The translations under genes were made by a program, and so were the position numbers. The notes beneath the pieces are model-generated. The model searched no databases, was not told where the DNA came from, and saw nothing but the letters and a program-made list of their open reading frames with translations. Of a DNA stretch of 64,000 nt, positions 1 through 61,793 are shown in pieces (the first letter of the stretch is position 1; the number at the start of each line of letters is the position of its first letter). Where the stretch lies: positions 52-64,051 of the forward strand of contig JAQTPP010000003.1 of NCBI GenBank assembly GCA_028712705.1, in the 5' to 3' direction. The DNA is from Candidatus Daviesbacteria bacterium (GTDB lineage: Bacteria; Patescibacteriota; Microgenomatia; Daviesbacterales; UBA10151).

Positions 1-132
1 GGGTTAAATAAAGGAACAACATTCACTGTGGCTTTGCCTGTTGCAACACCTGCTGTTTTGAAAGATATAAATAAATATCAGGTAAAACCAGAAGGTGAAG
101 CCAAGGGATTGGAACCGGCAGTTATTTTATGA
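1..132 (+). CDS. Sensor histidine kinase, C-terminal fragment (HATPase_c end; 5' truncated by window edge)
   Basis: Frame-1 translation GLNKGTTFTVALPV... ending at TGA 130-132. Resembles the G2 box/C-terminus of histidine kinases. Lies directly upstream of a receiver-domain gene. Confidence 0.55.
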   Translation, partial: GLNKGTTFTVALPVATPAVLKDINKYQVKPEGEAKGLEPAVIL

Positions 133-144
133 TATAGATAAACT

Positions 145-1346: not shown

Positions 1347-3049
1347 ACAACATTTTTATACAACTTGCCATTATTTTAAGTTTTTCATCTATCCTGGGGA
1401 TGGTTGTTTATAAGTTTAAATTACCCCTTTTAATCGCTTATCTTGTTACCGGTTTACTGCTTTCTATTGCCGCTACTTTTGATATTAGTAAGTCTTTGGC
1501 TCTATCTTTTTTACCGGATATCGGCATTGCCTTTGTTTTATTTTTAGTGGGGATGGAGCTGGATCTCCGTGAACTTAAGAATTTTGGCAGACAAATCCTG
1601 ACTGCCGGTATTTTGCAAGTGATTATTACCGCTACACTCGGTACATACATTGCCCAGAGTTTTGGTTTTAATACCCGGGAAGCAATATATTTGGGGTTGG
1701 GTTTATCTTTTTCATCAACCATGCTGGTAGTAAAATTGCTGATTGACAAAAAGGACTTAACTTCTTTATACGGAAAACTGTCAGTCGGGGTGTTGCTTTT
1801 GGAAGATTTGCTGGCTGTTGTTATTCTTTTGGTCATAGGTTCTTCGATGTCAATCTTGAACATAGGAGAATCTAATATCATGTTGCTTTCTATCCTGGTT
1901 TTTAAAGTGGTGGTCCTTTTTGCTATGGCGATCTTGATAAGCCGTTATATTTTAGCCGTTGTTTTTAAGGCTATATCTGATTCGGGCGAGCTGCTTTTAT
2001 TAACTGCGCTAGCCTGGTGTTTCGGATTTATCACCTTGTCTATGTTAATGGGTTTTTCCATACTTATCGGGGCTTTTTTGGCCGGGGTGGCTTTGGCATC
2101 CAGCCCTTATCATTTCCATATTCAAGGTAAGATTAAACCCATGCGGGATTTTTTTACCGCCCTTTTCTTTGTCTATTTAGGTACACGGGTTAATTTTTCG
2201 CTAAACAATATCTCTCTGTTGCCGCTGATTTTAATTTTTACAACTTATGTAATTTTAATTAAACCGGTGATTTTCTTGCTTTTGTTTGGGCTATTCGGTT
2301 TCCGGAAGCACACTATGTTTAAAACCGCTATCAATTTATCCCAGGTTTCCGAATTTTCCATGATTATCCTGTTGGTCGGATTTAAGGCAAATCTGGTTAG
2401 CCAGAATGCTTTAACGGTGATTGCCCTGTCTTCTGTTATTTCATTTATTGCATCATCTTTGATGATTTCGAAATCGCATGCGATCTACAAATTGGTTTCT
2501 TCTGCAGTTTCATTTTTTGAAAGAAGAAAGCATCTGGTATTTGAAAAAGAAGCGGATGCGGAATTATCAGATCATGTAGTGGTGATAGGAGCTCACCGGG
2601 TGGGCGGGGAGATAGTCAGGTTTTTAAAAAAGGAAAAATATCCGATGGTAGTTTTGGATTTTAATCCCCATCAGGTTGAAACGTTATTGAAAGAGGAAAT
2701 ACCTGTTATTTACGGGGATATGTCTGATCCGGAAGTTTTAGACATACTGAATTTAGATACGGCAAAAATGATTATTTCAACCGCACCCGACCTTGGGGAT
2801 AGCAAAACTTTACTGGAAGATTTAAAGCTTAGGAAGATAGGTATTCCGATAATAATCAGGGCAGAAACCATCAGGGAGGCCCAGGGATTATATAAACTGG
2901 GAGCGGATTTGGTTATACTGCCGGAAGTGATGGCAGGAGATTTACTGCTGGATATGTTAAGAGATCACTTAAACGAGAAAAGTTATTTTAAGGATAGGCC
3001 CAGGATTGAACTGGAAAAACTCTCCCGTAAAACACTGTCCTGGGGTTGA
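1343..3049 (+). CDS. Kef-type monovalent cation:proton antiporter (CPA2) with C-terminal RCK/TrkA-N domain
   Basis: About 12 TM helices followed by VVVIGAHRVGGEIVRFL, a Rossmann GxGxxG RCK domain. ATGA overlap with rluA. Confidence 0.8.
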   Translation: MNNIFIQLAIILSFSSILGMVVYKFKLPLLIAYLVTGLLLSIAATFDISKSLALSFLPDIGIAFVLFLVGMELDLRELKNFGRQILTAGILQVIITATLGTYIAQSFGFNTREAIYLGLGLSFSSTMLVVKLLIDKKDLTSLYGKLSVGVLLLEDLLAVVILLVIGSSMSILNIGESNIMLLSILVFKVVVLFAMAILISRYILAVVFKAISDSGELLLLTALAWCFGFITLSMLMGFSILIGAFLAGVALASSPYHFHIQGKIKPMRDFFTALFFVYLGTRVNFSLNNISLLPLILIFTTYVILIKPVIFLLLFGLFGFRKHTMFKTAINLSQVSEFSMIILLVGFKANLVSQNALTVIALSSVISFIASSLMISKSHAIYKLVSSAVSFFERRKHLVFEKEADAELSDHVVVIGAHRVGGEIVRFLKKEKYPMVVLDFNPHQVETLLKEEIPVIYGDMSDPEVLDILNLDTAKMIISTAPDLGDSKTLLEDLKLRKIGIPIIIRAETIREAQGLYKLGADLVILPEVMAGDLLLDMLRDHLNEKSYFKDRPRIELEKLSRKTLSWG

Positions 3050-3074
3050 CAACTTTGTAACTATTGTGTATACT
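3046..3074 (+). promoter_or_regulatory. Sigma-70-like promoter (TTGACA-N17-TATACT) with flanking inverted repeat ttgtaact/agttacaa; likely leaderless toxin-antitoxin promoter/operator
   Basis: TTGACA at 3046-3051 and TATACT at 3069-3074, with the ATG at 3084. A palindrome overlaps the -10. Confidence 0.4.
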
Positions 3075-3083
3075 TTAGTTACA

Positions 3084-3362
3084 ATGACTACAGTAATCCA
3101 TATTAAAGCTGATTATGAAGTTAAAAAGAATGCTCAAAAAGCAGCCAAAGATTTGGGATTGTCCTTGTCTGATGTAATCAACGCAGCTCTCCGGAATTTT
3201 ATCAGAACCAGGGAAGTTGTCTTTTCTGATATTCCTCAAATGACTCCTGAACTGGAAAAATTACTGGATAGAGTGGAAGACGATATAAAGCATAACCGTA
3301 ATCTTTCTCCTGCATTTGAAAATGGTGAAGAAATGGATAAGTATCTTGATTCGCTGCGATAA
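3084..3362 (+). CDS. RelB/DinJ-family antitoxin (ribbon-helix-helix)
   Basis: MTTVIHIKADYEVKKNAQKAAKDLGLSLSDVINAALRNFI matches the DinJ N-terminal RHH pattern. Immediately upstream of a YafQ-like toxin. Confidence 0.7.
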   Translation: MTTVIHIKADYEVKKNAQKAAKDLGLSLSDVINAALRNFIRTREVVFSDIPQMTPELEKLLDRVEDDIKHNRNLSPAFENGEEMDKYLDSLR

Positions 3363-3365
3363 TCC

Positions 3366-3623
3366 ATGAGAATCAAGCTTCATAAGGATTTCCTAAAACA
3401 ATACCAGAAGTTGAGAGCAAACGAAAAGAAAAAATTTAAAGAGAGAAGAAATTTATTTTTGCAGGATGAGTTTAATCCTGTTTTGAATAATCATTTATTA
3501 AAAGGTAAGTATTTAGGGTATAGAAGTATTAATATAACGGGCGACCTGCGAGCTATTTATAGAAAGAAAACTACTGAGATCATGTTTGTTGCAATAGATT
3601 CACACAGCAACTTATACGGTTAG
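3366..3623 (+). CDS. YafQ/RelE-family mRNA interferase toxin
   Basis: LKGKYLGYRSINITGDLRAIY...HSNLY aligns with the YafQ core (GxWKGYRDxHIxPDWxLIY...H). 85 aa. Confidence 0.75.
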   Translation: MRIKLHKDFLKQYQKLRANEKKKFKERRNLFLQDEFNPVLNNHLLKGKYLGYRSINITGDLRAIYRKKTTEIMFVAIDSHSNLYG

Positions 3624-3700
3624 GCAATACAAAGGAGGCCTCTATGGGTTATGAGGTACACAATTTTAACTTTGCATACCTCATACACCCATATATAGTT

Positions 3701-3910
3701 TTAAACCGCTGGTGCGCCTCCACCTTGTTCACCGCTTCCATTTTCAGGTTCAGTGGGTAAAGAGGGTGTAGACTCAGGAGCTTGTGGCTCAGGAGTTTGC
3801 GGTACACCTGGCATTTCAGGTTCTGCTGGTGGCGGAGCAGTTGGTTCTGCCGGCTGGTCCTGGTTTGGGTCAGCTGGAACAGCGCCTCCGGGATTATTTT
3901 GATCATCCAT
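3701..3910 (-). CDS. Hypothetical small Pro/Glu/Gln-rich acidic protein
   Basis: ORF with a GGGGGTG RBS about 8 nt upstream. Low-complexity PAEPTAPPPAEPE. An alternative overlapping frame at 3649-3906 was rejected. Confidence 0.35.
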   Translation of the reverse strand: MDDQNNPGGAVPADPNQDQPAEPTAPPPAEPEMPGVPQTPEPQAPESTPSLPTEPENGSGEQGGGAPAV

Positions 3911-3992
3911 TATTTTAATTCACCCCCTTTCATTACTCACTTTAACTAATAACTAGTTGCCAGGTCAATACCCGATTAGGTAACATGAGAGT

Positions 3993-4994
3993 ATGCGGAA
4001 AAAAGGCTGGAAAGATGTTCAATCCAGGACAAAGCAGAACAGAAGAACAAAACTTGCGATTTTCGTTTTAGCACTGGTAGCGGGAATGTTGATTCTGTCC
4101 TGGGCAATTCAATTTACGCAGCGCCTATTTAGCCCTTTAGGAACAGTCAATCAGCAGCGAAATTATGTCTGGAATGGGGAATTTAATATCAATCTGTTAG
4201 TTAGAACTTCACATACCGCTTTGCTCTCTTATAACCCGAAAGAAGAAAAAATAACTATCATAAAAGCGCCGGACGAGCTTTTTTTAGACGTGCCTTTTGG
4301 ATTTGGCAAATGGCAGCTCCGTGCCATATATGAACTTGGACAAACCCAAAAGGAGATGGGTGGAGACCGTTTATTAAAGGAGACATTAACGAGTTTTTTT
4401 GCCGTGCCCATTGACGGGTTTTTGGATTTTAGCTCGCTTCAACCATCAAAATCCGCTTCCGAAATAGTGGAAATACTTAAGAAAAATCCTTTTTCAGGCT
4501 TAAATTTATTATCTTCTTTAAAGACGGATTTAACGGTATGGGAGCTTTTAAGGCTTAAAGTTAGCCTAAGCAATGTGAGGTTTGATAAAGTTAAAGAGCT
4601 GGATCTTATTAGTCTTGGCGTGCTGGAGCGGGAGAATCTTCCTGATGGTACAGGGGTGCTGACAACAGACCCGATTAAGCTGGATAGCGTTTTATCTGAT
4701 TTTATAGATCCTGCGATTGTTTCGGAACATAAAACTATTGCGGTTTTCAATGCAACAGATAAGGTTCAGCTGGCAGGGAAATGGGCCAGGCTGATTACGA
4801 ATCTGGGCGGTAATGTGATTATTACAAATAATGCCAGGGAAAGATTAAAAAAGACAGCAGCGCAGGGAGAGGAGTCGCTTACTTTAAAAAGAATACGGCA
4901 GATTTTTTGTGATACAATCAACTCTTCAGAAGATGTAATTTCTTCTCGCGCCCAGATAGATTTATTTATCGGAGAAGATTACTTAAACAAATAA
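3993..4994 (+). CDS. LytR-CpsA-Psr (LCP) family cell-envelope protein
   Basis: N-terminal TM helix, then FNINLLVRTSHTALLSYNPKEEKITIIKAPDELFLDVP and a C-terminal LytR_C-like region. Confidence 0.65.
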   Translation: MRKKGWKDVQSRTKQNRRTKLAIFVLALVAGMLILSWAIQFTQRLFSPLGTVNQQRNYVWNGEFNINLLVRTSHTALLSYNPKEEKITIIKAPDELFLDVPFGFGKWQLRAIYELGQTQKEMGGDRLLKETLTSFFAVPIDGFLDFSSLQPSKSASEIVEILKKNPFSGLNLLSSLKTDLTVWELLRLKVSLSNVRFDKVKELDLISLGVLERENLPDGTGVLTTDPIKLDSVLSDFIDPAIVSEHKTIAVFNATDKVQLAGKWARLITNLGGNVIITNNARERLKKTAAQGEESLTLKRIRQIFCDTINSSEDVISSRAQIDLFIGEDYLNK

Positions 4995-5006
4995 TTTATT
5001 ATCACC

Positions 5007-5690
5007 ATGATTTTGTGGCTACTACTTTTTTTACTGGTTATCGGGATATCGTTTATTTTAGCATTCCGGTCAATGAGGGATTACCAGGAGATACCTCAAA
5101 AAGTCAATGTGGATTATAGTTTATTTCTCATACGCCAAGTTAAAACTTTTGATGTCAAAATTCTGGATACCATCCGTCAAGAGGTACTTGTCAAAGGGAA
5201 AATAGTTAGTTTTGAAAGGCTTTTAAAAGGGTCCGAGACAGCGCTTACTGTCTTTGGTCCGAAAAATATTCTATGCAGGTTTCAAAACGAGCTAAATCTA
5301 TTAGAATTGGAAGATTATGCGGCGGAATTTACAGACAGTGCAGTTTCCGTTTGGGAAGTAGGAGTAAAAGAGGCTGCCAAGTTAAACCATGATCATTTCA
5401 GTGATATTTTTAGCAATCTTCCTAAACTTGAACCGGATGAGCATTTTTTTTGGCAAGTGATAATTAGTAAAGACCAAGTTCAAATCCGGGCTGCAGTTTC
5501 TTCCAGGGATCCCATACGAAAGAAAATACTTGCATCAGCGCAAAATTTGAATGCCGGAGGACTTGTTAAAATCCCAAAACCGTTTTCAAATAAGCAAATG
5601 ATTGAATTCTACAAAACAAGAAGTTTCAGTAAAGACAATTCCGGATTAATTTTAGACTCCGCAGGGATAATGCGTCTTTTAAAGGTTTAG
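5007..5690 (+). CDS. Hypothetical membrane-anchored protein
   Basis: N-terminal TM helix (LWLLLFLLVIGISFILAF). No recognisable motif. Confidence 0.5.
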   Translation: MILWLLLFLLVIGISFILAFRSMRDYQEIPQKVNVDYSLFLIRQVKTFDVKILDTIRQEVLVKGKIVSFERLLKGSETALTVFGPKNILCRFQNELNLLELEDYAAEFTDSAVSVWEVGVKEAAKLNHDHFSDIFSNLPKLEPDEHFFWQVIISKDQVQIRAAVSSRDPIRKKILASAQNLNAGGLVKIPKPFSNKQMIEFYKTRSFSKDNSGLILDSAGIMRLLKV

Positions 5691-6445
5691 GTTTCTTGTT
5701 CCTCTTCAACATCTTCATCTTCTTCGCTATTGGCTCCATCAAACGAGGTTAAGATGTCTGTTGTGACACTGGAGTTAGAATATTCCAAAAAAGACGGCTG
5801 GTTTTTAAATTTTTTACTTCGGAAAGTTTCTTTAATAATGACGGACAGGCTATTTATTCTGACAGACTTGACAAATAGTTCGTATTTGTTGCCCCCTTTG
5901 GACAGTCTCAACAAATGATGGTTAATGTCGTCGGGCAGTACCCCAAGATAATCCCCGTTTAAATCAGTGATGGTAATTTTTCTGTTTTTTATTACCATTT
6001 CTACCTTCATTCCACAAAAGGCGGAGATAAGTTTTTGAGGTTCGGCTACTTTCAAAAGACTCACAATTTTTGTTTTACCCGGTTCTTGTAAAAAAAGGGA
6101 TGGGGAAAGTTTGGTATGGACGCAGCCGGCTGAGGATTGTTTATTGTTAGGGTCCTGAGTCGTTAGTTTGCACCAGTTGGATTTAAAAGACTTTATAATC
6201 CTTAAGTTTTTTTGGGCAATCGGGTTATAAGGATCAACGCTTAAGGCTTCCGAGTAGTATTTTTTTGCCAAATTCGCTCTGCCAAGTTCCATGTAAGCTT
6301 TAGCTTGGCGATTGAGGGCATCTACGTTTTGCGGGTCAATTTTTATGACTTGTTTATTAAGTTTAATTGCCAGCTCCCAATTGGAATCCAGCGCTGCATT
6401 TATTGCTTGCTCGTGAAGGCTTGCAGGTTCAAAGGAGTTGTCCAT
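5687..6445 (-). CDS. TPR-repeat protein with acidic C-terminal tail
   Basis: N-terminal TPR-like repeats (DPQNVDALNRQAKAYMELG...ALSVDPYNPIA). C-terminus EEDEDVEEEQET. Confidence 0.6.
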   Translation of the reverse strand: MDNSFEPASLHEQAINAALDSNWELAIKLNKQVIKIDPQNVDALNRQAKAYMELGRANLAKKYYSEALSVDPYNPIAQKNLRIIKSFKSNWCKLTTQDPNNKQSSAGCVHTKLSPSLFLQEPGKTKIVSLLKVAEPQKLISAFCGMKVEMVIKNRKITITDLNGDYLGVLPDDINHHLLRLSKGGNKYELFVKSVRINSLSVIIKETFRSKKFKNQPSFLEYSNSSVTTDILTSFDGANSEEDEDVEEEQET

Positions 6446-6513
6446 CTAAGTGATGAAGTATAGATAGAAAGTAGACAGGTTGTCAACATTTCGTGTTTTA
6501 TTCGCAGTCATCC

Positions 6514-6536
6514 AAATTCACCCTAGGGGTGAATTT
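6514..6536. repeat. Perfect 23-bp palindrome AAATTCACCCTAGGGGTGAATTT (AvrII core); a second copy of the 21-bp core lies in murD
   Basis: Seen directly in the intergenic region between divergent genes. The 21-mer CACCCTAGGGGTGAATTTAGG recurs at 24036-24056. Confidence 0.6.
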
Positions 6537-6562
6537 AGGGTGATATGTGAAAGTATAAGCTT

Positions 6563-7033
6563 CTAGCTACTGGTATTAGATTGCTTAATTAACCTACACT
6601 CTTTGACGCGAGAAGTGGTAATTGTCTGCCAGTGGCTATAATCTTCGCTTCCAGAAGGACCATCATGTCTAACCAGCTCTACTCTCATATCTTTTTTGAT
6701 CTGGTGGAGTAGTAACGAAGAGCCACCCCAGGTTGCTCCTTTAATTTCAACATTATCCACCGGTCCTTTGAATTTTTCTTCAAAATATCCTCCATGTATT
6801 GTCCCGCTACATGATCGTCTTTTTTCACCCTCTAGAAAAGCAGGTTCATCCACCCTAAAGACATATATAGAGTTATTTTTAGAGCTAGTGGAAAAAACAA
6901 TGATGTCTCCCTTTTTAACAGTAGAGAGATCCAAGCCTTCTAGAGCATCAGTTTCTTTAGCAAGTGTCGTAATATTCCACCAGGGTAATATCCCACCAGG
7001 GAATCGGGGTTTTTCTTCTGGGGTTTCTGTCAT
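6563..7033 (-). CDS. Hypothetical protein
   Basis: 156-aa ORF. No recognisable motif. Confidence 0.45.
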   Translation of the reverse strand: MTETPEEKPRFPGGILPWWNITTLAKETDALEGLDLSTVKKGDIIVFSTSSKNNSIYVFRVDEPAFLEGEKRRSCSGTIHGGYFEEKFKGPVDNVEIKGATWGGSSLLLHQIKKDMRVELVRHDGPSGSEDYSHWQTITTSRVKECRLIKQSNTSS

Positions 7034-7082
7034 TTTGCTATTATATCAAATAGATTAAAATCATGATAGAATCGTCAAAGAT

Positions 7083-7826
7083 ATGTCCGGGCATTCAAAG
7101 TGGTCAACAATCAAGCGGCAAAAAGGGGTAGCAGATATTAAGCGCGGGCAGACTTTTACTAAGCTTGCCAATGCTATTACTATTGCTGTGAAATTGGGTA
7201 ACTCAGGCGATCCAGAATCAAATCCTCGTTTAAGGATGGTAATGGAGGATGCGAAAGCTGTTAATATGCCTAAGGAAAATGTAGGGCGGGCAATAGATCG
7301 CGGTTTGGGTAAGTTGCCTGGTCAGAGTTTGGAAGAGATGATTTATGAAGGATTTGGACCTGGTAAGGTGGCATTTTTAGTAGAAGGAGTAACTGATAAT
7401 AAACTGCGGATCTTGCAGGAGATTAAAAATTTTTTTGAAAGAAACGGAGGGAATTTAGCCGGACAGGGAAGTGTGGCGTATATGTTTGACAGGGTGGGAG
7501 AAATCAGAGTAAGGAGTAAAGGTGGAAACGCAGAGGAAGAAATGCTGGAACTGATAGATCTTGGCGCGAAAGACGTTGAAGACTATTTGGTAAACAGCAT
7601 ACAAATGTATTTGGTATATACAGAGAGCCCAGAATTAAATACTATGAGTAATAAAATTACTCAGGCAGGATATGGAGTAGAGTCGCAGGAGCTAGTGTTT
7701 AAACCAAATGCCTTAGTTTCAATAAATGATCCGGAAACAGCCAAAAAAGTTTTGGATTTTACAGGGAAGTTAGAAGAGTTGGATGATGTACAAAAGGTGT
7801 ATGCTAATTTTGAGATATTAACATGA
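7083..7826 (+). CDS. yebC: YebC/PmpR-family transcriptional regulator
   Basis: MSGHSKWSTIKRQKGVADIKRGQTFTKL is the hallmark N-terminus. Conserved yebC-ruvC gene order. Confidence 0.9.
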   Translation: MSGHSKWSTIKRQKGVADIKRGQTFTKLANAITIAVKLGNSGDPESNPRLRMVMEDAKAVNMPKENVGRAIDRGLGKLPGQSLEEMIYEGFGPGKVAFLVEGVTDNKLRILQEIKNFFERNGGNLAGQGSVAYMFDRVGEIRVRSKGGNAEEEMLELIDLGAKDVEDYLVNSIQMYLVYTESPELNTMSNKITQAGYGVESQELVFKPNALVSINDPETAKKVLDFTGKLEELDDVQKVYANFEILT

Positions 7827-8356
7827 TTATACTTGGAATTGATCCTGGAACAGCTACCACCGGTTATGGAGTCATAAAAATACCGGATGATATATTAAGT
7901 CGGGAATTTAACTACAATATAGAACTGATAGCTTATGGAAATATCAGCACGCCCAAAGATAAACTAATGCAGGACCGCTTGCATATGATACACAGCGAAC
8001 TAACCTCGGTTATTAAAAAATATCAGCCGGACCAGATGATTTGCGAAATGTTATTTTTCGGGGCCAATACCAGAACTGCCATTATGGTAGGACAGGCGAG
8101 GGGAGTGATTATGTTAACAGCTTCTCAGCATAACATTCCGTTTCAAGACTATACGGGTTTGCAGGTGAAACTTTTGGTTGCCGGGTCAGGTAGAGCTGAT
8201 AAAAATCAAGTCCATGACGGGGTAAGGAAATTTTTAGGAACCTCCGGTAGAAAACGGAATAAGCTAAAAGTAAATTGGAAAGGTGGACACCTGGATGATG
8301 CCACAGATGCGCTGGCAATTGCTATCTGTCATGTGCTTAAATTAGCTGCGAAGTAA
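7823..8356 (+). CDS. ruvC: Holliday junction resolvase RuvC
   Basis: IILGIDPGTATTGYGVI and DATDALAIAICH catalytic motifs. ATGA overlap with yebC. Confidence 0.9.
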   Translation: MIILGIDPGTATTGYGVIKIPDDILSREFNYNIELIAYGNISTPKDKLMQDRLHMIHSELTSVIKKYQPDQMICEMLFFGANTRTAIMVGQARGVIMLTASQHNIPFQDYTGLQVKLLVAGSGRADKNQVHDGVRKFLGTSGRKRNKLKVNWKGGHLDDATDALAIAICHVLKLAAK

Positions 8357-11384: not shown

Positions 11385-13685
11385 ATGGGAGCAATTTTAG
11401 ATTACTTCAAAAACGAAACAGGAAACTTGTTTCGCAATAAAAAAAATCTTGTTAGTCTGCTTGTTTTAGGTATACTTATTCTGGGTATTCCATTGGGTGT
11501 TAATCTTGTCAGGACGCAGCAAATTATTAAATCCCGCGCTGCTGTAGATCCAATTGTATTTACAGGTTCAAATGTTAGTAAAAAGAGTGATGGTACCTGG
11601 GTTACCACCAAGCCTCAGATTCAAGTTCAGCTCACTTCCCCGCTGGGTCCGGCCCAATCTTCTATTCAAACTGTGAAGTCAAAAGACTCATTAATAGGGG
11701 CTTTACCCAAAGGTTTGGTGGAAACTGTGTATGCAGCAGCAACTTGTTCTAATGGAACAAAAAATGTGGGAGATAAATGGCCTGAATGTCATGGTTGTGA
11801 TGAGGGTGTGGTAGAGTGTACAGGACAAGATACTTATGGCTGGACATCTGTCAAGAACCCATCTCCCAATTGTGGAGCAGGTTGTGGTGGAGGCGGAGGT
11901 GGTGTAACTAATGCGTGTAATCCTCCAGGAGTTGGTAGTGCCGAGGGATGTAGTGCTATGAAGAAATGTCCTAATGGTCAAGCCTGTGCATCAGGTCATA
12001 AGTATTGTGTTTGGGACGCAGGTGGTAATCATTGGGGAGATTGCCAGATAGAGATAGATAACTGTGCTACCCAGTGTGCTAGCAGTGGTACAAGTAAGGG
12101 TACTATAGATTGTAAAGCAACTTTTAAACCAAGCGAACTGGGGATTAATAGTCCAGGTGTATGCGACAGGCTACATGAATTCCGTGCTGATTGTAACCGC
12201 TGGTGTCCTCAAAATCCACAATATTATTCTAATCCTAACGAGGATTGTCCAAAAAATACAACCCCAAGTCAACAAGCCTTTATTAATCCTGCCACAAGTG
12301 CCTGGTGTTATGAATTTAAAGGTCCAGCAGGTGACACTCATAATAATAAATGTATGCAACTTTGGTATATTGGGACAGGGTCAGAGCCAAGCTGTGCTTC
12401 GGGAGAAGGTAGCGGTGGACCTGCCGGATGCCAGGGGCTGGATGCATGCAGTGAATGTGTTTTACTGAAAGAAACGAGTATTTTATATAAGTACGCAGAG
12501 TGGGGTTGGGATACAAACTGTAGTAACCAGGCAAAGATTGTTGCGGATTGGTGCAAGATTAATCCGAGCGGTTGCCAGGGTATTAGATCAGGCCAGTGCG
12601 CTTCAAGCTGTGGAGGAGCGTCTGCTACTTCGCCTTCTCCCTCTCCCGCCTCTTCTCCTCCTTCTACTTCAGCTCCTGCCTATACTAAGCAATTTAGGAT
12701 TGCGGAAAATCCGACTGATTTAGCTAGCGCTCCATGGCAGGATTATACAACTGTTGTTGCATCAAACCCGCTTGATTATACTTTCAAGGATGTAACACCG
12801 GGGCAGAAGTTTATCTTTGTGCAATTCATGGATTCTACCAATAAGGTAACCACTGCAGCCGATTGTCCGAAGTGTCAAGCCCAGATTAAACTGCTTGGGC
12901 CTGGTCCGGTTATGACTAGTTGTTCTTTGAGTTTTGAAGACAGCAAGACTACTCTGAATTTAACGGGGCAAAATTTTGGATCAGAAAAGGGTACAGTAAA
13001 AAGCGGTGATACTAATTTGGAAATAAAGTCATGGAGTAATAATAGCATTCAGGCGGTTTTGCAGAATGCGCAAACAGGACAAGTTTTGCCAATAACTTTC
13101 ACAAATACAGACGAACAAACAGGAACCGGCCAGTGCGGTGCTATTTCACAGCTTGCTTTAGGAGCCAGGGTTTTTTGCAGGGCGCCGGCTTCTCATGATA
13201 CGGAGAATGTAGATATGGTTCTGGTGGATGAAACAGGAAAAAAGACACGGCAAACAGTAAAGATCGATAAAAATGGAGTTGTCCAGGGGTTGACTCAAAA
13301 ATTAGAAGTCGGTAAGAGATATATTGTGTCACTTAAGGCGCCGAAATCGTTGCGGAGAATTGCCCGATTTACAGCTGGCGACGGCATAGTCAGCATCCCC
13401 AATTTCATTTTGCCTATTGGCGACATTTTCCCATTGGACGTTCGTGACGGTGCAATAAACCCTTTTGATCATGCACAATTAATCCGCGAGTTTATCATTG
13501 CTGAAGACAGCTGCGACAGACCCGGAGATTTTAATAGAGATTGCAGGGTTAATTCTATTGATTGGGCTTGTATGAGATATGATTTCGGTCAAGTGGATGA
13601 TCCGGAACCAACAGTTTCGTCCTTTGTCACAACCGCCAGTCCAAACCCAACCGCAAGTTCTAGTTCTAGTTCTTCGCCGTTATGA
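11385..13685 (+). CDS. Large secreted Cys-rich surface protein with Ser/Pro linker, TIG/IPT-like region and C-terminal dockerin-like domain
   Basis: N-terminal signal-anchor. About 40 Cys in residues 100-420. Linker SPSPSPASSPPSTSAP. The C-terminal LDVRDGAINPFD...GDFNRDCRVNSID matches the duplicated DxNxDGxxNxxD dockerin Ca-loop pattern. Poly-Ser tail. Confidence 0.7.
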   Translation: MGAILDYFKNETGNLFRNKKNLVSLLVLGILILGIPLGVNLVRTQQIIKSRAAVDPIVFTGSNVSKKSDGTWVTTKPQIQVQLTSPLGPAQSSIQTVKSKDSLIGALPKGLVETVYAAATCSNGTKNVGDKWPECHGCDEGVVECTGQDTYGWTSVKNPSPNCGAGCGGGGGGVTNACNPPGVGSAEGCSAMKKCPNGQACASGHKYCVWDAGGNHWGDCQIEIDNCATQCASSGTSKGTIDCKATFKPSELGINSPGVCDRLHEFRADCNRWCPQNPQYYSNPNEDCPKNTTPSQQAFINPATSAWCYEFKGPAGDTHNNKCMQLWYIGTGSEPSCASGEGSGGPAGCQGLDACSECVLLKETSILYKYAEWGWDTNCSNQAKIVADWCKINPSGCQGIRSGQCASSCGGASATSPSPSPASSPPSTSAPAYTKQFRIAENPTDLASAPWQDYTTVVASNPLDYTFKDVTPGQKFIFVQFMDSTNKVTTAADCPKCQAQIKLLGPGPVMTSCSLSFEDSKTTLNLTGQNFGSEKGTVKSGDTNLEIKSWSNNSIQAVLQNAQTGQVLPITFTNTDEQTGTGQCGAISQLALGARVFCRAPASHDTENVDMVLVDETGKKTRQTVKIDKNGVVQGLTQKLEVGKRYIVSLKAPKSLRRIARFTAGDGIVSIPNFILPIGDIFPLDVRDGAINPFDHAQLIREFIIAEDSCDRPGDFNRDCRVNSIDWACMRYDFGQVDDPEPTVSSFVTTASPNPTASSSSSSSPL

Positions 13686-19002: not shown

Positions 19003-21579
19003 CTATGTTTTTTCTTTAGAACAAACAACCGTAGCTGCTGCTACTTTTTCCCCGGGTCTGACTCTCATTAAGATTACCCCTTGAGTTTGACGCTGCAGGG
19101 TCGGTACCTCTGCCAGGTTCATCTTTATAAGTTGTCCTTTTGTGGAGGTTAATACCAAAGTGTCCATTTTTTTATCAATGGCCTCTGCTGTAACAATCGG
19201 TCCGGTTTTGGCAGTCACCTGTGCAGCTTTAACTCCTTGTCCTCCCCTGCCCTGTCTGCTCCAGGCGGAAAATCTGGTTTTTTTACCTAAACCGTTTTGC
19301 ATAATTACCAAAAGCTCATCATCATTACCTTGGACCAAATTTAGGGAGACTACCTCATCGTTGCCGGTCAGCTTAATTCCTCTTACTCCGGAAGTATCCC
19401 GGTGCGTTGGTTTGACTTGGGTTTCGGAAAAACGAATTGATTTGCCATTTTTTGAAACAATAACGACATCGTCCTTGCCTGAGGTTGGGGTTACCCATCC
19501 CAGTTCATCGCTCGGATCCAACTTGATTGCTACCAGACCATTTTTGCGGATATTGGCATATTCTGTAAGGGAAGTTTTTTTGACAGTGCCCTTTTTAGTA
19601 CACATAAAGAAGTATTTGGCGCTTTCGCCTTTTTGCCTGGTGGTTAAAACTGCCGTGACTTTTTCCTCTTGTTCAACATTGATTAAGTTGACAATAGCCT
19701 GGCCTTTGGCTGCGCGTTGTGTTTCCGGAATTTCCCAAACTTTGATTTGGAAAACCCTGCCTTTGTCGGTAAAGAATAAAATACTGTCATGCGTTTGGGT
19801 ATAGAAAATGTGGGAAACCGCATCTGTTTCTTTGGTGGCGATTCCCATCACTCCTTTGCCGCCCCGCTGTTGTATCCTAAAAGACATCGGAGCCTGGCGT
19901 TTGATATAACCGCCTTCAGTGATGGTAGCAATAGTCATCTCATTTGGTACTAAATCTTCTTCGGAAAATTCCCCGACTTTTTGTTTATAAACACGGGTTC
20001 GTCTGTCGTCTCCATATCTTACTTTAATTTTTACGAGTTCATCCCTGATAACTTTTAAGATTTTTTCCGGATGAGCCAGTAAATCTTCCAAATAGGCAAT
20101 TGTTTCCCGGATCATTTTTAGTTCATCTTCAATTTTTTGGCGCTCCAGCGCAGCTAACCTTCGAAGCTGCATATCCAAAATAGCCAAAGCCTGGATTTCT
20201 GTTAACTTAAATCTGGTCATTAAATTCTGTTTTGCAGAATCTGCATCAGCGCTTTTTTTAATGGTTTCCACAACCGCATCGATATTATCAACAGCAATTT
20301 TTAAGCCTTCTAATATATGTTCTCTTGCTTTGGCTTCGGTAAGTTCAAATTCGGAGCGTTTTCTAATGACTACTTGCCTGTGATGAATAAATTCTTCCAA
20401 CACCCGTTTTAATGTCAGAAGATGCGGGACTCCGTCTGAAAGGGCGACCAGGTTGATATTAAAAACCGACTGCATGGCAGTATATTTATAAAGACTATTT
20501 AAGATTGCCTGGGGTTTGGCGTCTCTTTTTAAGTCAAACACAATTCTGACCATTTGTTTGCGGTCTGATTCATCCCGTAAATCCGCAATGCCCTCTAATT
20601 TTTTATCTTTTACCAGTTCGGCAATTCTGGCAATCAAGGTAGCTTTATTCACCTGGTATGGCAGCTCCGAAACGATAATTTGCATCTTTCCTGCCGCAGT
20701 TTCATCAATTTCAGCCTTGGCTCTCATTACAATCCGGCCCTTACCGGTGGCATAAGCCGCAAGGATTTCGGTTTGGTCATAGATGGAAGCGCCGGTTGGA
20801 AAATCAGGGCCTTTAATAAATTGCAGAAGATCTTCAACAGTGGCAGTGGATTTGAAGCTATCAGTCTTCAGTATCGCTTCGCCCGTTTTTGGCGCGGTTT
20901 CGCTCTCAGCTTTCAGACTTTCTGAATCTGACGACTGACGACTGACGACTGACGACTGTTTTTCCGGATGTTCTATCATGTAAACCAGTGCATCAGTGAC
21001 TTCCCCCAGATTATGTGGCGGGATTTGGGTGGCCATACCAACAGCAATGCCGGAGGCACCGTTTAACAATAGGTTGGGTATAACAGAAGGAAGTAATACT
21101 GGTTCTTGTGTAGTACCGGAATAGTTATCCACAAAATTGACAGTATTTTTATTAATGTCACGAAGTAACTCCTCGGAAATTGCAGAAAGTCGGGCCTCCG
21201 TATACCGCATTGCCGCGGGCGAGTCTCCATCAATTGATCCAAAATTCCCCTGGCCGTCAACCAGCATATATCTCATGGAAAAATTTTGCGCCATCCGGAC
21301 CATAGCTTCATATATAGGAGCATCACCATGAGGATGGAGGTTTTTCATAACTTCACCGACAACTGCAGCTGATTTTTGGAAGCGGGATGTGTGGTGTAAA
21401 CCTTGCTGGTGCATTGCGTAAATAATTCTTCGCTGGACCGGTTTTAGGCCGTCACGGACGTCCGGTAGCGCCCGGGAAACAATAACAGACATGGCATAGT
21501 CCAAATAGGACTTTTGCATTTCTTCAATAATAGGAGTGGTTACAATTTTGCCGATGTTACTCATTGGTTTGGGGTACAA
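19003..21579 (-). CDS. gyrA: DNA gyrase subunit A
   Basis: [23 protein letters not shown]. Active-site region GKYHPHGD, present as HPHGDAPIY. Six C-terminal GyrA-box repeats. About 40-aa insertion before GPDFPTG containing the heptamer tract. Confidence 0.95.
20929..20958. repeat. Tandem heptamer (AGTCGTC)x4 in gyrA coding sense
   Basis: tgacgactgacgactgacgactgacgactg on the plus strand. Encodes [10 protein letters not shown] within the GyrA insertion. Confidence 0.75.
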
Positions 21580-23685: not shown

Positions 23686-25099
23686 CTTTAAAAACTTTTT
23701 TGACAGCCTGATTAAATTTTCTACCCCTATCGAATTCGTTTTGGAATAAATTAAAAGAAGTGGCCGCCGGAGAAAAGAGAATGATATCGTTTGGTTTAAC
23801 AATTTTTTTAATATCTGTAAGCAGATTTTCGAAATTATTGTAAGTTCCTGCAATTTTATCTGATGACTGACGGCTGATAGCCTGTCCGTCCGGCAGGCGG
23901 GCTGACAGCTGTTTCTTTATTTCATCAGTTGAATCCCCTTCCAAAAAGAAAACCTTTTTGACAAATTTGCCAACTACCTCTGCATATTTTGTATAATCCA
24001 TTTTTTTATTCATCCCCCCGCAAATTAAAATTAGACACCCTAGGGGTGAATTTAGGTTGCCACCTAAGGTTTTTATAGCCTGGATTCCTGCTTCCGGACT
24101 GGTGGCAGCAGTGTCATTATAAATCCTTACTCCATGCCAAACTTTAATAAGTTCCATCCTGAATGGGATACCTTTGAACTTTGATAGAATTTTAAGAGCG
24201 GATTTTTTACCAATTCCGAAGGTTCCCCCAACAGTTATGGCGGCAGCAATATTTTCCAGATTATGACTGCCTAAAAGTTTAGGATGAAAGTTTTCTGATA
24301 AATCATTTTTAGAGAAACGGATAATATGAGCCTTAAGCCCAGTCAGAAAATTTGCCTGGTCTATCAATGAGTCGTTTCTTCTTATGAAAAGAAAATCATT
24401 TTGGGTCTGATATTTGCCAATAATCCTTTTGGAGAAAACGTAGTCTTTCATGGTGACATAATAATTAAGGTGATCTGGTGTGATATTAGTGATCACTGCC
24501 CATTTTGGGGAAATCTTGTGCGTATCATATGCTTCCAGTTGGAACGAAGAAATCTCCAAAACTACCAAGCTATTTTTTTTAACAGACGAAATTGTATCCA
24601 GAACGCTTTTGCCGATATTGCCGGCCAAAATAACATTTTTCCAAGGGTGTGTGCGTTGTCCACCCCTGGGGTGGGATAGGTTGACACCTAAGGATTTGCT
24701 GAGTACTTCATAAATTAGCGAGGCAGTAGTGGATTTGCCTTTGGTTCCGGTTACTCCAATGATCTGGTCAGGTCTTACATATTGCAGAAAAATTCCCATG
24801 TCTGTGTCAATCTGTTTACCCAATTTTGTGGCATATTCCAGGTAAGGATTTCCTGGTTTAATTGCCGGGTTTTTGATAATTAAATCTGCCCAATCTATAT
24901 CCTCATTTTTGTGTTCGCCTAAGGTATATTCTATTTGCGGAAAATCTCTTAACTCATCCAAAGAAGATTTTAAAACTTCTTTAGTTTTTAAATCAGTTAC
25001 CCTGACTTCGGCTCCTTGTCTTGCAAAAAATCTGGCAGATCCCACCCCACCTTCATTAAGTCCTAATCCAAAGACCAAAACCTTTTTAAAACTATTCAT
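23678..25099 (-). CDS. murD: UDP-N-acetylmuramoyl-L-alanine--D-glutamate ligase
   Basis: GVTGTKGKSTT P-loop and Mur ligase C-terminal domain. Located in the ddl/alr/murC neighbourhood. Confidence 0.85.
   Translation of the reverse strand: MNSFKKVLVFGLGLNEGGVGSARFFARQGAEVRVTDLKTKEVLKSSLDELRDFPQIEYTLGEHKNEDIDWADLIIKNPAIKPGNPYLEYATKLGKQIDTDMGIFLQYVRPDQIIGVTGTKGKSTTASLIYEVLSKSLGVNLSHPRGGQRTHPWKNVILAGNIGKSVLDTISSVKKNSLVVLEISSFQLEAYDTHKISPKWAVITNITPDHLNYYVTMKDYVFSKRIIGKYQTQNDFLFIRRNDSLIDQANFLTGLKAHIIRFSKNDLSENFHPKLLGSHNLENIAAAITVGGTFGIGKKSALKILSKFKGIPFRMELIKVWHGVRIYNDTAATSPEAGIQAIKTLGGNLNSPLGCLILICGGMNKKMDYTKYAEVVGKFVKKVFFLEGDSTDEIKKQLSARLPDGQAISRQSSDKIAGTYNNFENLLTDIKKIVKPNDIILFSPAATSFNLFQNEFDRGRKFNQAVKKVFKDA
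24036..24056. repeat. Second copy of 21-bp palindromic motif CACCCTAGGGGTGAATTTAGG, in-frame inside murD
   Basis: Encodes LGGNLNSPLGC in MurD, about 5 aa longer than the E. coli MurD equivalent region. Identical 21-mer at 6519-6539. Confidence 0.6.
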
Positions 25100-28705: not shown

Positions 28706-30769
<2,064 letters not shown>

Positions 30770-36738: not shown

Positions 36739-37659
36739 ATGTGGGGATCAGCCGGATTTTTGATCGGTATAGTCTTGGGAAGCTTGGTAAAAGCATTGGC
36801 TGATCGTAGTTTAAGCAATAAATCTTTTTGGGGAAGGTCGTACTGCTTGAGGTGTCGGCATACGCTGGCTGTGTACGACCTTTTTCCTGTTCTTTCCTAT
36901 GTTTTGCTTAGAGGAAAATGTAGATATTGCAAGGATCGGATAAGTATAGAGTATTTGGTTGTTGAGGTGGTAATGGGGATGTTAATTGGGTTTTTGTTTT
37001 GGCAAGAGTTCAGTAGTCTTCAGTCTTCAGCTTTCAGTCTTCAGCTAATTTCAAATTTTAAATTTTTAATTTTTATTTTTGATTTACTTTTTAAGACTTT
37101 TTTTATTGTAATTCTGGCAATTCTTTTTATTACGGATATTAAAAGAATGCTGATTCCGGATAGAATTATTAAACCGGCTATTCTGATCGGGACAATTTCC
37201 CTGCTGGTTATTACCGCATATAAGGTAGGATACTTGTACTACTACTTAGCTCAAACGCCGATCGGTAGACAACTTCTTCCTCCGAGTAGTGGATACTTCC
37301 AAAGACATGCGTTAATGGTAGTCCAGCCGTTTCTCTTATCATTATTGATGGGGCTCTTGATTGGCGGATTTTTCTGGGGGTTGATAATTATTACCCGTGG
37401 AAAAGGAATGGGCGGAGGGGATGTAAAATTAGGAGCATTTATCGGAGTAATGTTAGGGTTCCCCCAAGCTCTTTTAGCCTTAGTTTTGGCATTTTTTACA
37501 GGCGCGATATTTGGAGTAGCGCTTATTATTGCCGGCAAAAAACATTTTGGTCAAACAATTCCCTTTGGCCCATTTTTGGTTTTGGGAAGCTTGATAACTA
37601 TTTTTTGGGGAAATCAGATTATTGGTTGGTATTTAAGATTAAGGGTATTTATCCCTTGA
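36739..37659 (+). CDS. pilD: Prepilin peptidase PilD (A24 family) with N-terminal zinc-ribbon
   Basis: CLRCRHTL...CRYCKDRISI tetra-Cys. Conserved Asp-containing TM core. Low-complexity insertion with heptamer repeats. Confidence 0.85.
   Translation: MWGSAGFLIGIVLGSLVKALADRSLSNKSFWGRSYCLRCRHTLAVYDLFPVLSYVLLRGKCRYCKDRISIEYLVVEVVMGMLIGFLFWQEFSSLQSSAFSLQLISNFKFLIFIFDLLFKTFFIVILAILFITDIKRMLIPDRIIKPAILIGTISLLVITAYKVGYLYYYLAQTPIGRQLLPPSSGYFQRHALMVVQPFLLSLLMGLLIGGFFWGLIIITRGKGMGGGDVKLGAFIGVMLGFPQALLALVLAFFTGAIFGVALIIAGKKHFGQTIPFGPFLVLGSLITIFWGNQIIGWYLRLRVFIP
37015..37042. repeat. Tandem heptamer (AGTCTTC)x4 (one AGCTTTC variant) in pilD coding sense
   Basis: cagt agtcttc agtcttc agctttc agtcttc agct encodes SSLQSSAFSLQL. 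Confidence 0.7.
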
Positions 37660-45233: not shown

Positions 45234-45255
45234 TGGCTGACGGCTAGTTAAAAAT

Positions 45256-59361: not shown

Positions 59362-61793
<2,432 letters not shown>

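Follow-up and report, generated by a model that had tools for sequence, protein, structure and literature searches.

Tandem heptanucleotide repeats inside conserved genes of a Candidatus Daviesbacteria bacterium are probably simple-sequence repeats of a known kind

Tandem 7-base repeats are scattered through a stretch of Candidatus Daviesbacteria DNA of 64,000 nucleotides (hereafter the window, or W in comparisons with related loci, which carry L numbers), and they were confirmed to be real and far beyond chance. They are probably heptanucleotide simple-sequence repeats (SSRs) of a known kind, made by slippage or duplication and filtered by selection, and not phase-variation switches.

Results

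Period-7 arrays in the window

The window contained four perfect period-7 tracts of 21 nt or longer, compared with a mean of 0.0 in 200 second-order Markov simulations, as well as four loci of the form (TCAGNNN)2TCAG, compared with 0.00 expected. At least six period-7 arrays were present, in the manner of dispersed tandem heptamers with three or more copies at many loci, and TCAG/AGTC recurred in five of six window arrays. The tracts, host genes, and encoded peptides described in an earlier note on this DNA were all re-found in the sequence, but the list given there lacked the arrays at 51341–51375 in recG and at 1054–1078. No known RNA families or tRNAs were found across the 64 kb. The arrays and associated features are as follows.

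1054–1078, plus strand: (AACTACG)x3.6, imperfect, in a pseudouridine synthase gene (531–1346)
20842–20961, minus strand: in-frame gyrA insert of approximately 40 amino acids (120 nt), residues 207–246, forming an imperfect palindromic module
20857–20872, minus strand: 3' arm of the gyrA module, ACTGAAGACTGATAGC, with inverted repeats I1–I3, approximately 92% complementary to the heptamer array
20928–20958, minus strand: (AGTCGTC)x4.4, perfect, in gyrA; the plus strand reads (CTGACGA)x4.4, and the array encodes SSVVSRQSS
23858–23911, minus strand: degenerate (TCAGNNN) array in the murD C-terminal region, with the peptide QLSARLPDGQAISRQSSD
37015–37044, plus strand: (AGTCTTC)x4.3, imperfect, in the PilD loop between FLFWQ and FDLLFKTFF
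37046–37085, plus strand: (TAATTTT)x5.9, second array in the PilD loop, with the peptide LISNFKFLIFIFDL
41652–41679, plus strand: (AGTCTAC)x3 + CGTCTAC, in the pilin-like gene from codon 3, first part of the lengthened leader
41688–41714, plus strand: (CGGAAGT)x3.9, perfect, second part of the lengthened prepilin leader
42941–42963, plus strand: three-unit degenerate TCAG run, GCTTTCAGCCGTCAGTATCAAAT, in ORF 42280–44160
45222–45247, plus strand: opposite-orientation NNNCTGA-type run, ACTGAAGACTGATGGCTGACGGCTAG, at the pilM/pilN junction
51341–51375, minus strand: (ACCAACT)x4.9, without an AGTC core, in recG, with the peptide NLPTTNYQLPT

Period 7 in related loci

In a sample of 1.10 Mb of related loci (gyrA and pilD neighbourhoods, with metagenome contigs that are partly redundant), perfect tracts of 21 nt or longer with periods between 2 and 15 numbered 23 for period 7, three for period 8, two for period 9, and none for the remaining periods. 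TRF yielded 61 non-redundant period-7 arrays from these 1.1 Mb, with 19 for the next most common period. Period 7 dominates the tandem repeats of this lineage, and the enrichment on which the earlier note had staked its observation was seen in these neighbourhoods (at most 19 arrays for any other period). Forty-four of the 61 arrays lay within stop-to-stop ORFs of at least 90 amino acids, and the arrays were not predominantly intergenic in the manner of the heptanucleotide class of long SSRs (LSSRs). The high coding density qualifies the in-ORF share.

The arrays comprised 3.4 to 4.9 units, typically about 4.3, and their tract lengths showed a second mode at 30 to 31 nt and a maximum of 34 nt, arrays between ORFs included. 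A position near the gene start was common (relative positions of 0.00 to 0.12 in many ORFs). Units were very diverse overall, many of them without TCAG. Arrays were more uniform than their surroundings, and three of four units had changed together in one lineage: the array of L137 reads AGTCGTC followed by (AGTCATC)x3, with the total length unchanged.

The gyrA insert and its counterpart in gyrB

The host of the (AGTCGTC)x4.4 array is gyrA (ORF 19003–21579, minus strand), the product of which matches a protein from a Candidatus Daviesbacteria MAG at 100% identity. The GyrA insertion of roughly 40 amino acids reported earlier proved to be 40 amino acids long (residues 207–246) and has no counterpart in the solved GyrA structure 4DDQ, residues 203 and 205 of which flank the alignment gap opposite the insert. 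The insert was missing from several relatives, and a HMMER scan of 44 amino acids of the GyrA insert against 1.84 billion representatives gave no match at E <= 0.001. A GyrA model obtained with AlphaFold2 from a 40-sequence alignment had a mean pLDDT of 54.5; given that insert residues 209–239 scored <50 and that residues 1–189 did likewise, the model provided no information on the insert.

The gyrA array was identical in length and sequence (30 nt) in W, L001, L002, L125, and L163. These five assemblies span a GyrA divergence of 10–13%, and the rest of the gyrA insert differs by 14–18% among assemblies that share the identical array. The array constitutes the 5' arm of a hairpin-forming module of approximately 110 nt, in which it is followed by the block AAGTCTGAAAGCTGAGAG, a GC-rich central hairpin, and the 3' arm. 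The RNA fold predicted for this module had an energy of -40.9 kcal/mol (z = -4.3). The pilin leader, pilD, and recG gave fold z-scores of +0.13, +1.65, and -1.2, respectively; hairpins as a general property of the arrays were rejected, with the gyrA module alone being structured.

Five copies of the module were aligned, four from gyrA (W, L001, L002, and L137) and one from gyrB of L003, the closest relative. The gyrB module of L003 is homologous to and colinear with the gyrA module of the window, with the arrays matching at 30/30 positions, the block AAGTCTGAAAGCTGA(G/C)AG matching at 17/18 positions at equal offset (P < 2e-4), and the 3' arms matching at 14/16 positions (P = 0.001). Between W and L003, GyrB is approximately 98% identical outside the insert, and the gyrA and gyrB inserts are entirely different. 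The presence of a homologue of the gyrA module in gyrB of L003 suggests that the module may be dispersed from gene to gene. Within the sampled loci (gyrA and pilD neighbourhoods), each genome yielded one full module only, plus half-modules in murD, where (TCAGNNN)n + TCAGACAARA recurs, and no target-site duplication was recognized at the module. Ends resembling GCTATCAGYC occurred 14 times in the window, compared with 4.0 ± 2.0 expected.

Array sites in relatives

The comparison with relatives that the earlier note had called for showed that the same sites hold different heptamers or nothing. In pilD (36739–37659, plus strand), the array previously given as (AGTCTTC)x4 is present, with 4.3 units, but is imperfect, matching at 82% and having AGCTTTC as its third unit. 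At the corresponding site, L203 has (AGTTTAC)x4.6 and L204 has units of the (AATTTTC) type, and relatives encode 7-amino-acid periodic peptides of the SIFNFQF type at the site of the second array. The pilin-like gene (41646–42287, plus strand) does encode the atypically long prepilin leader of 28 amino acids attributed to it, compared with 8 in the L205 ortholog (MSSNNSHG, followed by LSLIEV); the extra 60 nt falls in the stretch that holds both arrays, and N-terminal pilin-family profiles begin to match the window protein at residue 27–28.

The murD run was likewise present (23858–23911, minus strand, peptide ISRQSSD). Its array is 21 nt (three units) longer in W than in L003, and the murD site carries TCAG at period 7 across divergent lineages (W, L003, L162, and L142), in which the remaining positions and the encoded peptide vary. 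At the pilM/pilN junction, where a run had also been noted, we found it at 45222–45247; the TGA stop codon of pilM (45231–45233) falls within this opposite-orientation run, which ends 8 nt before the pilN ATG (45256). The array at 1054–1078 was identical, at 100%, in an independent Logan assembly (run SRR22315508); the contigs of that assembly, which are short, matched the window at 100% and reached only 146 nt beyond it. The signal peptide of a cohesin-like protein was a hot spot with differing units at six loci. Insertion hot spots at which relatives have differing units or none are GyrA, PilD, the cohesin-like signal peptide, murD, GyrB, and the pilin leader. The arrays sit in hypervariable in-frame insertion hot spots, which probably tolerate added residues, and these permissive sites carry arrays again and again, with units that differ between species.

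Orientation and stop codons

The arrays had been said always to read in the coding sense. Most of them do, but the statement is not strictly true, because the run at the end of pilM is oppositely oriented and carries the pilM stop codon. The bias is also largely forced, given that the arrays are read in all three frames and that antisense strands contain stops. Of the six window arrays, five have a stop codon on the antisense strand (TGA for AGTCGTC and AGTCTTC; TAG for AGTCTAC, ACCAACT, and AACTACG), whereas neither strand of (CGGAAGT)x3.9 contains one. Approximately 58–69% of heptamers are stop-free. In the 1.1 Mb of related loci, antisense stops were present in 35 of the 44 in-ORF arrays, compared with the 27–37% expected for random heptamers, and intergenic arrays mostly had stops on one or both strands. 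An in-gene heptamer array must be stop-free in three frames, and strand bias alone is therefore no evidence of function; a stop-codon argument for orientation has also been made for the TAACTGA repeats (PMC4679880). The recurrence of TCAG/AGTC in the window arrays and in murD exceeds what the stop-codon filter alone explains.

Discussion

Origin and retention of the arrays

The explanation that we consider probable is that a heptamer-favouring process of duplication or slippage keeps creating and homogenizing arrays of approximately 30 nt throughout the genome, with occasional copying of array-bearing hairpin modules adding to their spread. Selection would then retain those arrays that keep the frame intact, lie in a stop-free orientation, and fall in a tolerant region of the protein, candidates being GyrA and GyrB surface loops, the MurD C-terminal region, the inter-helix loop of PilD, prepilin leaders, and signal peptides. 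Stops on both strands would confine an array to the space between genes, and stops on the sense strand to gene ends. The arrays would contribute short peptide segments, probably disordered or belonging to leaders.

Some observations do not fit this explanation well. Plain slippage predicts monotonic lengths and copy-number polymorphism, whereas we observed a second mode at 30–31 nt. Orthologous arrays showed no length differences in the few comparisons available, and known heptamer SSRs are mostly intergenic, whereas 44 of 61 arrays here are in ORFs.

Alternative explanations

The earlier note likened the arrays to contingency loci, in which case slippage by one unit would switch expression of gyrA, pilD, and the pilin gene or yield alternative products. 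The premise is sound in that slippage by a single 7-nt unit, not being a multiple of 3, would shift the frame, and such SSRs lie within the ORFs of gyrA, pilD, the pilin-like gene, recG, and murD; moreover, two of these hosts, pilD and the pilin-like gene, are part of a surface-structure system, and many arrays are located near gene starts. A role as contingency loci is nevertheless not supported by our data and is disfavoured to the point of being very improbable. The gyrA array is of equal length in five independent assemblies across 10–13% GyrA divergence, and copy number did not vary between assemblies for this array or in the few other orthologous pairs, the latter amounting to two array pairs only, both between 100%-identical contigs. 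Rather than long tracts in dispensable surface or restriction-modification genes, the arrays are of 3.4–4.9 units, only about 4.3 as a rule, and are hosted by recG and by the presumably essential gyrA, gyrB, and murD. Every in-ORF array examined leaves its ORF open and in frame, and the difference of exactly 21 nt between murD of W and L003 is that expected from frame-preserving selection. An origin of the tracts in assembly or polishing, which by the earlier note would refute its observation, has a negligible probability. Tract lengths of 30–31 nt are near common k-mer sizes, and the Logan assembly of run SRR22315508 is fragmented, but the tracts are not artefacts: five assemblies of related Candidatus Daviesbacteria (CPR/Patescibacteria), independent of one another, agree in every base of (AGTCGTC)4AG. 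The same array appears in NCBI, ENA (MEGAHIT k141), and JGI assemblies of different samples, and the in-ORF arrays all preserve long ORFs, as random collapse would do only one time in three. Only slightly less improbable than contingency loci is the notion that the period-7 TCAG/CTGA runs are functional cis-elements, serving as RNA or DNA sites for an oligomeric protein. Proteins of the HutP type recognize triplets at a spacing of 7 nt, murD retains its period-7 TCAG despite the changing peptide, and conservation is higher in the gyrA array than in its flanks. The pilM/pilN run, in 'forward' CTGA orientation 8 nt before the pilN start, also resembles an arrangement described for other bacteria (PMC4679880). 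The units are very diverse, however, many lacking TCAG; TCAG is sense in some genes and antisense at pilM, so that no single RNA motif fits; many relatives have no insert at the same sites; and no candidate binding protein was identified.

That the arrays are arms of a small non-autonomous palindromic mobile element, resembling a MITE or RPE and spreading by in-frame copy-and-paste, is a more serious possibility, albeit an unlikely one. The gyrA module has the features of such elements (approximately 100–150 nt, inverted arms, and a hairpin), its array and complementary 3' arm forming a long imperfect hairpin with the low z-score given above, and homologous in-frame copies occupy unrelated genes, gyrA in W, L001, L002, and L137 and gyrB in L003. 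The wholly different inserts of otherwise nearly identical GyrB proteins, the half-module in murD, and the enrichment of GCTATCAGYC-like ends in the window also favour mobility, and RPEs provide a precedent for in-frame palindromic insertion into housekeeping genes (PMC10969869). The pilin, pilD, and recG arrays lack these features, however, and in most cases the units are unrelated and the array has nothing to pair with in a hairpin, as in recG, PilD, the pilin leader, signal peptides, and arrays of the AATTTTC type. A single full module was seen per sampled genome, with no target-site duplication, and the difference in units between species at orthologous sites suggests local origin or turnover. 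The earlier proposal that the repeats are footprints of insertion or repair is partly supported by the in-frame hypervariable inserts and the copy of the module in gyrB, but no repair or insertion mechanism was identified. More doubtful still is whether Daviesbacteria, and perhaps other CPR, possess an active, hitherto undescribed sequence-writing process that lays down arrays of a preferred approximately 30 nt (4.3 units), often as adjacent pairs of unlike arrays, and copies heptamer-armed hairpin modules between unrelated essential genes, as from gyrA to gyrB. If such a process exists, conserved proteins would contain 'expansion segments' with a fast turnover, coding genes would harbour RPE-like selfish DNA, and heptamers would follow a ruler beyond ordinary slippage.

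The window also contains a RAYT-like gene (Y1 transposase; 55020–55730), whose NCBIfam score is under the curated cut-off and homologues of which adjoin gyrA or pilD in many relatives. A REP/REPIN link was rejected, the flanking hairpins (TCCCAC..GTGGGA) being unlike the heptamers and absent elsewhere in the window.

Significance

The preference of bacteria for 7-nt tandem repeats has gone unexplained since STRRs were described in 1990, the published ideas amounting to a guess at a polymerase footprint. Heptamer arrays of CPR bacteria are common, lie mostly within genes, and can be compared among hundreds of MAG relatives, so that their birth, homogenization, decay, and transfer can be traced, and CPR genomes of approximately 1 Mb with minimal repair machinery provide a small system in which to do so. 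Conserved CPR enzymes (GyrA, GyrB, MurD, PilD, and RecG) carry fast-evolving in-frame inserts made of repeats and palindromes, which bear on protein annotation, phylogenetics, and structure prediction in this group.

Relation to known repeat systems

On sequence grounds, the window arrays appear to belong to the same class as the cyanobacterial STRR units and the NNACTGA/TCAGTNN repeats of Beggiatoaceae. A scan of 185,579 species genomes for AGTCNNCx4 gave at least 120 loci, which, given the bias of the pattern, indicate taxonomic breadth and not frequencies; filamentous cyanobacteria were the largest group among the matches listed, with AGTCAAC and AGTCCCC as the top units. Mazel and colleagues reportedly included CAACAGT and CCCCAGT among cyanobacterial STRR units in 1990, and AGTCAAC and AGTCCCC are rotations of these two. 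The arrays share with heptanucleotide LSSRs and STRRs their 7-nt tandem units, their many dispersed loci, and the over-representation of period 7. Unlike STRRs, they occur in a CPR host with a genome of approximately 1 Mb rather than in a large cyanobacterial genome, lie mostly in genes (gyrA, gyrB, murD, and recG) rather than between them, and have a mode of 30–31 nt and a maximum of 34 nt, whereas cyanobacterial and other loci reach 129 nt. Among long SSRs of prokaryotes, heptanucleotide repeats are known to be the class of highest abundance. According to Mrazek et al. 2007, as that work is cited in PMC4679880 and PMC4692102, heptamers are the over-represented class of long SSRs, possibly by way of a polymerase contact of approximately 7 nt. 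Four units are preferred in GGGNATC repeats (PMC4692102), and about four are typical here too.

RPEs and intragenic MITEs (PMC10969869) resemble the gyrA/gyrB module in that the latter is a hairpin of approximately 100–120 nt that is placed in frame at tolerant sites of unrelated housekeeping genes and lengthens the host protein by a peptide segment while leaving it intact. The module differs in having tandem heptamers as arms and, so far, a single full copy per sampled genome; no conserved element-encoded peptide family was recognized, and most heptamer arrays lie outside such a module. Borg tandem repeats, which give rise to intrinsically disordered protein regions (PMC9879509), are likewise perfect, independently arising, and fast evolving, and they too give low-complexity protein segments that are often extracellular or in leaders. 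Borg in-ORF units are all divisible by three, whereas the 7-nt units here are read in three frames and the total length of the array must preserve the frame.

The TAACTGA repeats of marine Beggiatoaceae (MacGregor 2015), also found in some cyanobacteria and Bacteroidetes, have been proposed to play a translational role upstream of start codons, and within ORFs they are in reverse orientation (TCAGTTA, LSVISYQ), one such place being a variable loop at the surface of an RNA polymerase beta'-like protein (PMC4679880). Read antisense, the window units become CGACTGA, AGACTGA, and AGACTGT, which are of this NNACTGA class, and they share both the stop-free 'reverse' orientation in ORFs and the location in variable protein loops. 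TAACTGA is the favoured heptamer in Beggiatoaceae, related heptamers being rarely repeated, whereas no single heptamer is favoured here; the great majority of the Beggiatoaceae sets lie between genes and upstream of start codons, whereas the arrays here are mostly intragenic; and nothing linked the present arrays to an alternative RNA polymerase subunit. TCAGTTA itself occurred once, in L137 (around 15020).

Heptamer arrays in the window and in related genomes

The 64-kb window belongs to the lineage Candidatus Daviesbacteria (Microgenomates, CPR/Patescibacteria); a protein encoded by a Daviesbacteria MAG matches its GyrA at 100% identity, and hundreds of relatives show 78-95% identity. The gene names in the earlier note (gyrA, pilD, murD, pilM, recG) are backed by Pfam, and the tandem tracts that it described are all present, although corrections are needed: the pilD array exists but is imperfect and adjoins another, and the arrays in recG and a pseudouridine synthase gene had been overlooked.

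Arrays of 7-nt units in the window
20928-20958, sense of gyrA: (AGTCGTC)x4.4, perfect
37015-37044, pilD: (AGTCTTC)x4.3, imperfect
immediately thereafter, pilD: (TAATTTT)x5.9, second array
pilin-like gene, from codon 3 onward: (AGTCTAC)x4 and (CGGAAGT)x3.9
murD and the pilM/pilN junction: degenerate heptamer runs
recG: (ACCAACT)x4.9
pseudouridine synthase gene: (AACTACG)x3.6

The window contains four perfect tracts of period 7 that reach 21 nt or more, versus 0.0 in 200 Markov simulations, and the motif (TCAGNNN)2TCAG is found at four loci versus 0.00 expected. Neither tRNA genes nor Rfam families at the gathering threshold were detected in the whole 64 kb (1-64000).

The wider data set comprised 83 sequences (1.10 Mb), that is, the window and Daviesbacteria-like loci sampled around gyrA and pilD, with metagenome contigs that are partly redundant and with ORFs defined from stop to stop. 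Among perfect tandem repeats reaching 21 nt or more, 23 had period 7, three had period 8, and two had period 9, with no other period between 2 and 15 represented, and TRF identified 61 non-redundant arrays of period 7 (next commonest period, 19). Period 7 is a property of the lineage. The units themselves are diverse: those with AGTC/TCAG are prominent in the window, and AATTTTC, CTTTTTA, GATTTAC, TTCTATC, ACCAACT, and others are found elsewhere. The distribution of tract lengths falls geometrically between 14 and 21 nt. A second mode follows at 30-31 nt, comprising about eight independent arrays, of which two lie between ORFs, and the longest tract measures 34 nt; heptamer tracts in cyanobacterial and other loci, in contrast, spread continuously up to 129 nt. 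Several sites share TCAG at period 7 while their remaining positions and encoded peptides vary, and different arrays are frequently placed side by side at one hot spot. Plain slippage does not predict the 30-31 nt mode, the recurring TCAG, or the adjacent arrays. The gyrA insert of relative L003 (10001-12520) keeps the TCAG repeats with A-rich spacers at a period of 8-10 (TCAGAAAAAC TCAGAAAA TCAGAAGA TCAGAATTC), and the conserved anchor may be TCAG rather than the 7-nt spacing.

Relation to known heptamer repeats

A scan for AGTCNNCx4 covered 185,579 species, each represented by one genome. Among the matches listed, filamentous cyanobacteria (Microcoleus, Nostoc, Tychonema, Calothrix, Dolichospermum) formed the largest group, accompanied by Acidobacteriota, Bacteroidota, Planctomycetes, Omnitrophota, and one Saccharibacteria genome, and the commonest units were AGTCAAC and AGTCCCC. 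Both are STRR units in rotated form (CAACAGT and CCCCAGT, respectively). Heptamers are the over-represented class of long SSRs in many bacteria (Mrazek 2007, as cited in PMC4692102 and PMC4679880), GGGNATC repeats show a preference for four units (PMC4692102), and TAACTGA repeats occur in reverse orientation in ORFs, for instance in an RNA polymerase beta'-like protein, where they occupy a variable loop (PMC4679880). Borg tandem repeats differ in that their unit length is always divisible by three inside ORFs (PMC9879509), compared with 7 nt here. Our literature search turned up no earlier description of heptamer repeats from CPR bacteria. The tracts belong to the heptanucleotide SSR class already known from STRR and TAACTGA-like repeats, and they represent a new case of it that is mostly intragenic and lies in a CPR lineage.

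Strand orientation and stability of the arrays

An array of at least three heptamers is read in all three frames, so any stop on the sense strand, whatever the frame, excludes it from lying within a gene. The opposite strand contains TGA for AGTCGTC and AGTCTTC and TAG for AGTCTAC, ACCAACT, and AACTACG, with GGAAGTC being the only one of these units open on both strands. In the whole data set, the antisense strand was closed in 35 of 44 in-ORF arrays, and most intergenic arrays had stops on one or both strands. The same stop-codon argument was made by MacGregor for TAACTGA repeats, which encode LITDN-stop forward and LSVISYQ in reverse (PMC4679880). The run at the end of pilM departs from the coding sense described in the earlier note: it is reversed, contains the pilM TGA stop, and ends 8 nt upstream of the pilN ATG. 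Array orientation is explained by this stop-codon and frame filter, and the strand bias is therefore no evidence of function.

For gyrA, loci of relatives were taken from NCBI, ENA, and JGI assemblies. The 30-nt sequence (AGTCGTC)4AG was identical in the window and in loci L001, L002, L125, and L163, with GyrA identity to the window of about 90% for L001 and about 87-88% for L002, while the remainder of the insert differed by 14-18% between lineages sharing the identical array. In L137, the array is AGTCGTC followed by (AGTCATC)x3 at unchanged total length, and the joint alteration of three units is the signature of homogenisation within the array. The few other comparable orthologous pairs had equal lengths. 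All in-ORF arrays inspected keep the ORF open, whereas collapsed or mis-assembled repeats would be expected to keep the frame in only one-third of cases. The heptamer tracts are not artefacts and, in the few orthologous comparisons available, not variable in length, and the contingency-locus reading suggested in the earlier note is unsupported, with equal lengths in these comparisons and the ORF open in every case inspected. Separately, an independent Logan assembly of run SRR22315508 (L206, L207) matched window positions 1-7961 and 61535-63785 at 100% identity.

A hairpin module in gyrA and gyrB

The gyrA insert is predicted to form a long imperfect hairpin (-40.9 kcal/mol, z = -4.3) with the heptamer array as its 5' arm, ACTGAAGACTGATAGC as the complementary 3' arm, and a variable GC-rich centre. 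In the closest relative, L003 (95% identity in GyrA and, outside the insert, about 98% in GyrB), the gyrA insert is unrelated, and gyrB bears a colinear homologue of the gyrA module. The window gyrA and L003 gyrB modules agree at 30/30 positions of the array, at 17/18 of the block AAGTCTGAAAGCTGA(G/C)AG at the same offset (P < 2e-4), and at 14/16 of the 3' arm (P = 0.001). The module is located in gyrA of the window and of the more distant L001, L002, and L137. This distribution suggests that modules are copied from one gene to an unrelated one and that inserts turn over rapidly, a pattern resembling that of Rickettsia palindromic elements (PMC10969869). The majority of the remaining arrays lack such folding and have unrelated units, so a mobile module cannot account for the arrays in general. 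The suggestion that the repeats are insertion footprints is partly supported.

Insertion sites among relatives

Each array lies in a hypervariable segment, its position coinciding with sequence that varies freely from one relative to the next. The GyrA site, between MIEHP and ATVEDL..KGPDFP, holds from 0 to about 55 extra residues, several relatives having no insert, and the solved structure of B. subtilis GyrA (4DDQ) has no counterpart of the 40 inserted residues. At this site L124 carries (CGACTAC)n and (GGAAGAC)n, and other relatives have decayed GAGTCAA-type runs or unrelated palindromes. Peptides with a 7-aa period mark the PilD loop between FLFWQ and FDLLFKTFF in the majority of the 38 aligned sequences, for instance SIFNFQF, encoded by (AATTTTC)n, and TVYSLQ, encoded in L203 by (AGTTTAC)x4.6. 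The leader of the pilin-like gene is 28 aa in the window versus the canonical 8 aa in the L205 ortholog, and the additional 60 nt fall in the stretch bearing both arrays. The signal peptide of a cohesin-like secreted protein carries a different heptamer array in each of six relatives. A degenerate (TCAGNNN)5 run in the MurD C-terminal region is common to the window, L003, L162, and L142, with that of the window exactly 21 nt longer. GyrB also has a variable insertion site.

Other inserts were observed in the same genes. Window GyrB (28706-30739, minus), about 98% identical to that of L003 outside the insert, carries a C-terminal insert with the palindrome GTCATTCTGG...CCAGAATGAC at the site of the L003 TCAG heptamer module. 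The array hot spots also harbour an in-frame palindromic element, GTCATTGCGAGCGAAGCGAAGCAATC...CTCGCAATGAC, present in gyrA of L145 and L164, gyrB of L193, and the PilD loop of proteins P0141 and P0191 and encoding VIASEAKQS...PRNDN, VIARSEATWQS, and SLRGASETSDVAIS. In addition to its (ACCAACT) array, recG has a second kind of palindromic insert (50585-50710, minus), which is GC-rich, in frame, and about 40 aa long (SRSAGDGQKRASPTRSRRSEAIEDARRSANGGEPAGPAQ), with predicted nested hairpins (-59.1 kcal/mol, z = -2.6). Intein/homing-endonuclease domains (PF14528, PF14890) are present in Daviesbacteria GyrA proteins P0036, P0039, P0056, P0062, P0073, P0081, and P0098 (1263-1346 aa) and absent from window GyrA.

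Y1 transposase-like gene and REP-like hairpins

The window also contains the following features.

55020-55730, plus: Y1 (HUH) transposase-like gene resembling REP-associated tyrosine transposases (NCBIfam score 35.6 bits, the cut-off being 80)
55041-55059: TCCCAC..GTGGGA hairpin near the ORF start
55522-55540: TCCCAC..GTGGGA hairpin in mid-ORF
55738-55756: TCCCAC..GTGGGA hairpin just downstream

Many relatives have a homologue of this gene beside gyrA or pilD. It lies directly downstream of gyrA in L002, L145, L186, and L193 and of pilD in L203 and L204, each copy with its own REP-like hairpins. We considered this transposase as a source of the heptamers and rejected it, because the REP hairpins bear no relation to them. 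Tandem copies of half-REP units were seen beside a complete REP hairpin in L204 (ACTTACACCCCAT, 13 nt, three copies, roughly 11660-11720, upstream of the Y1 gene) and in L002 (CCATCCCACCTG, 13450-13500), indicating local tandem duplication of hairpin arms.
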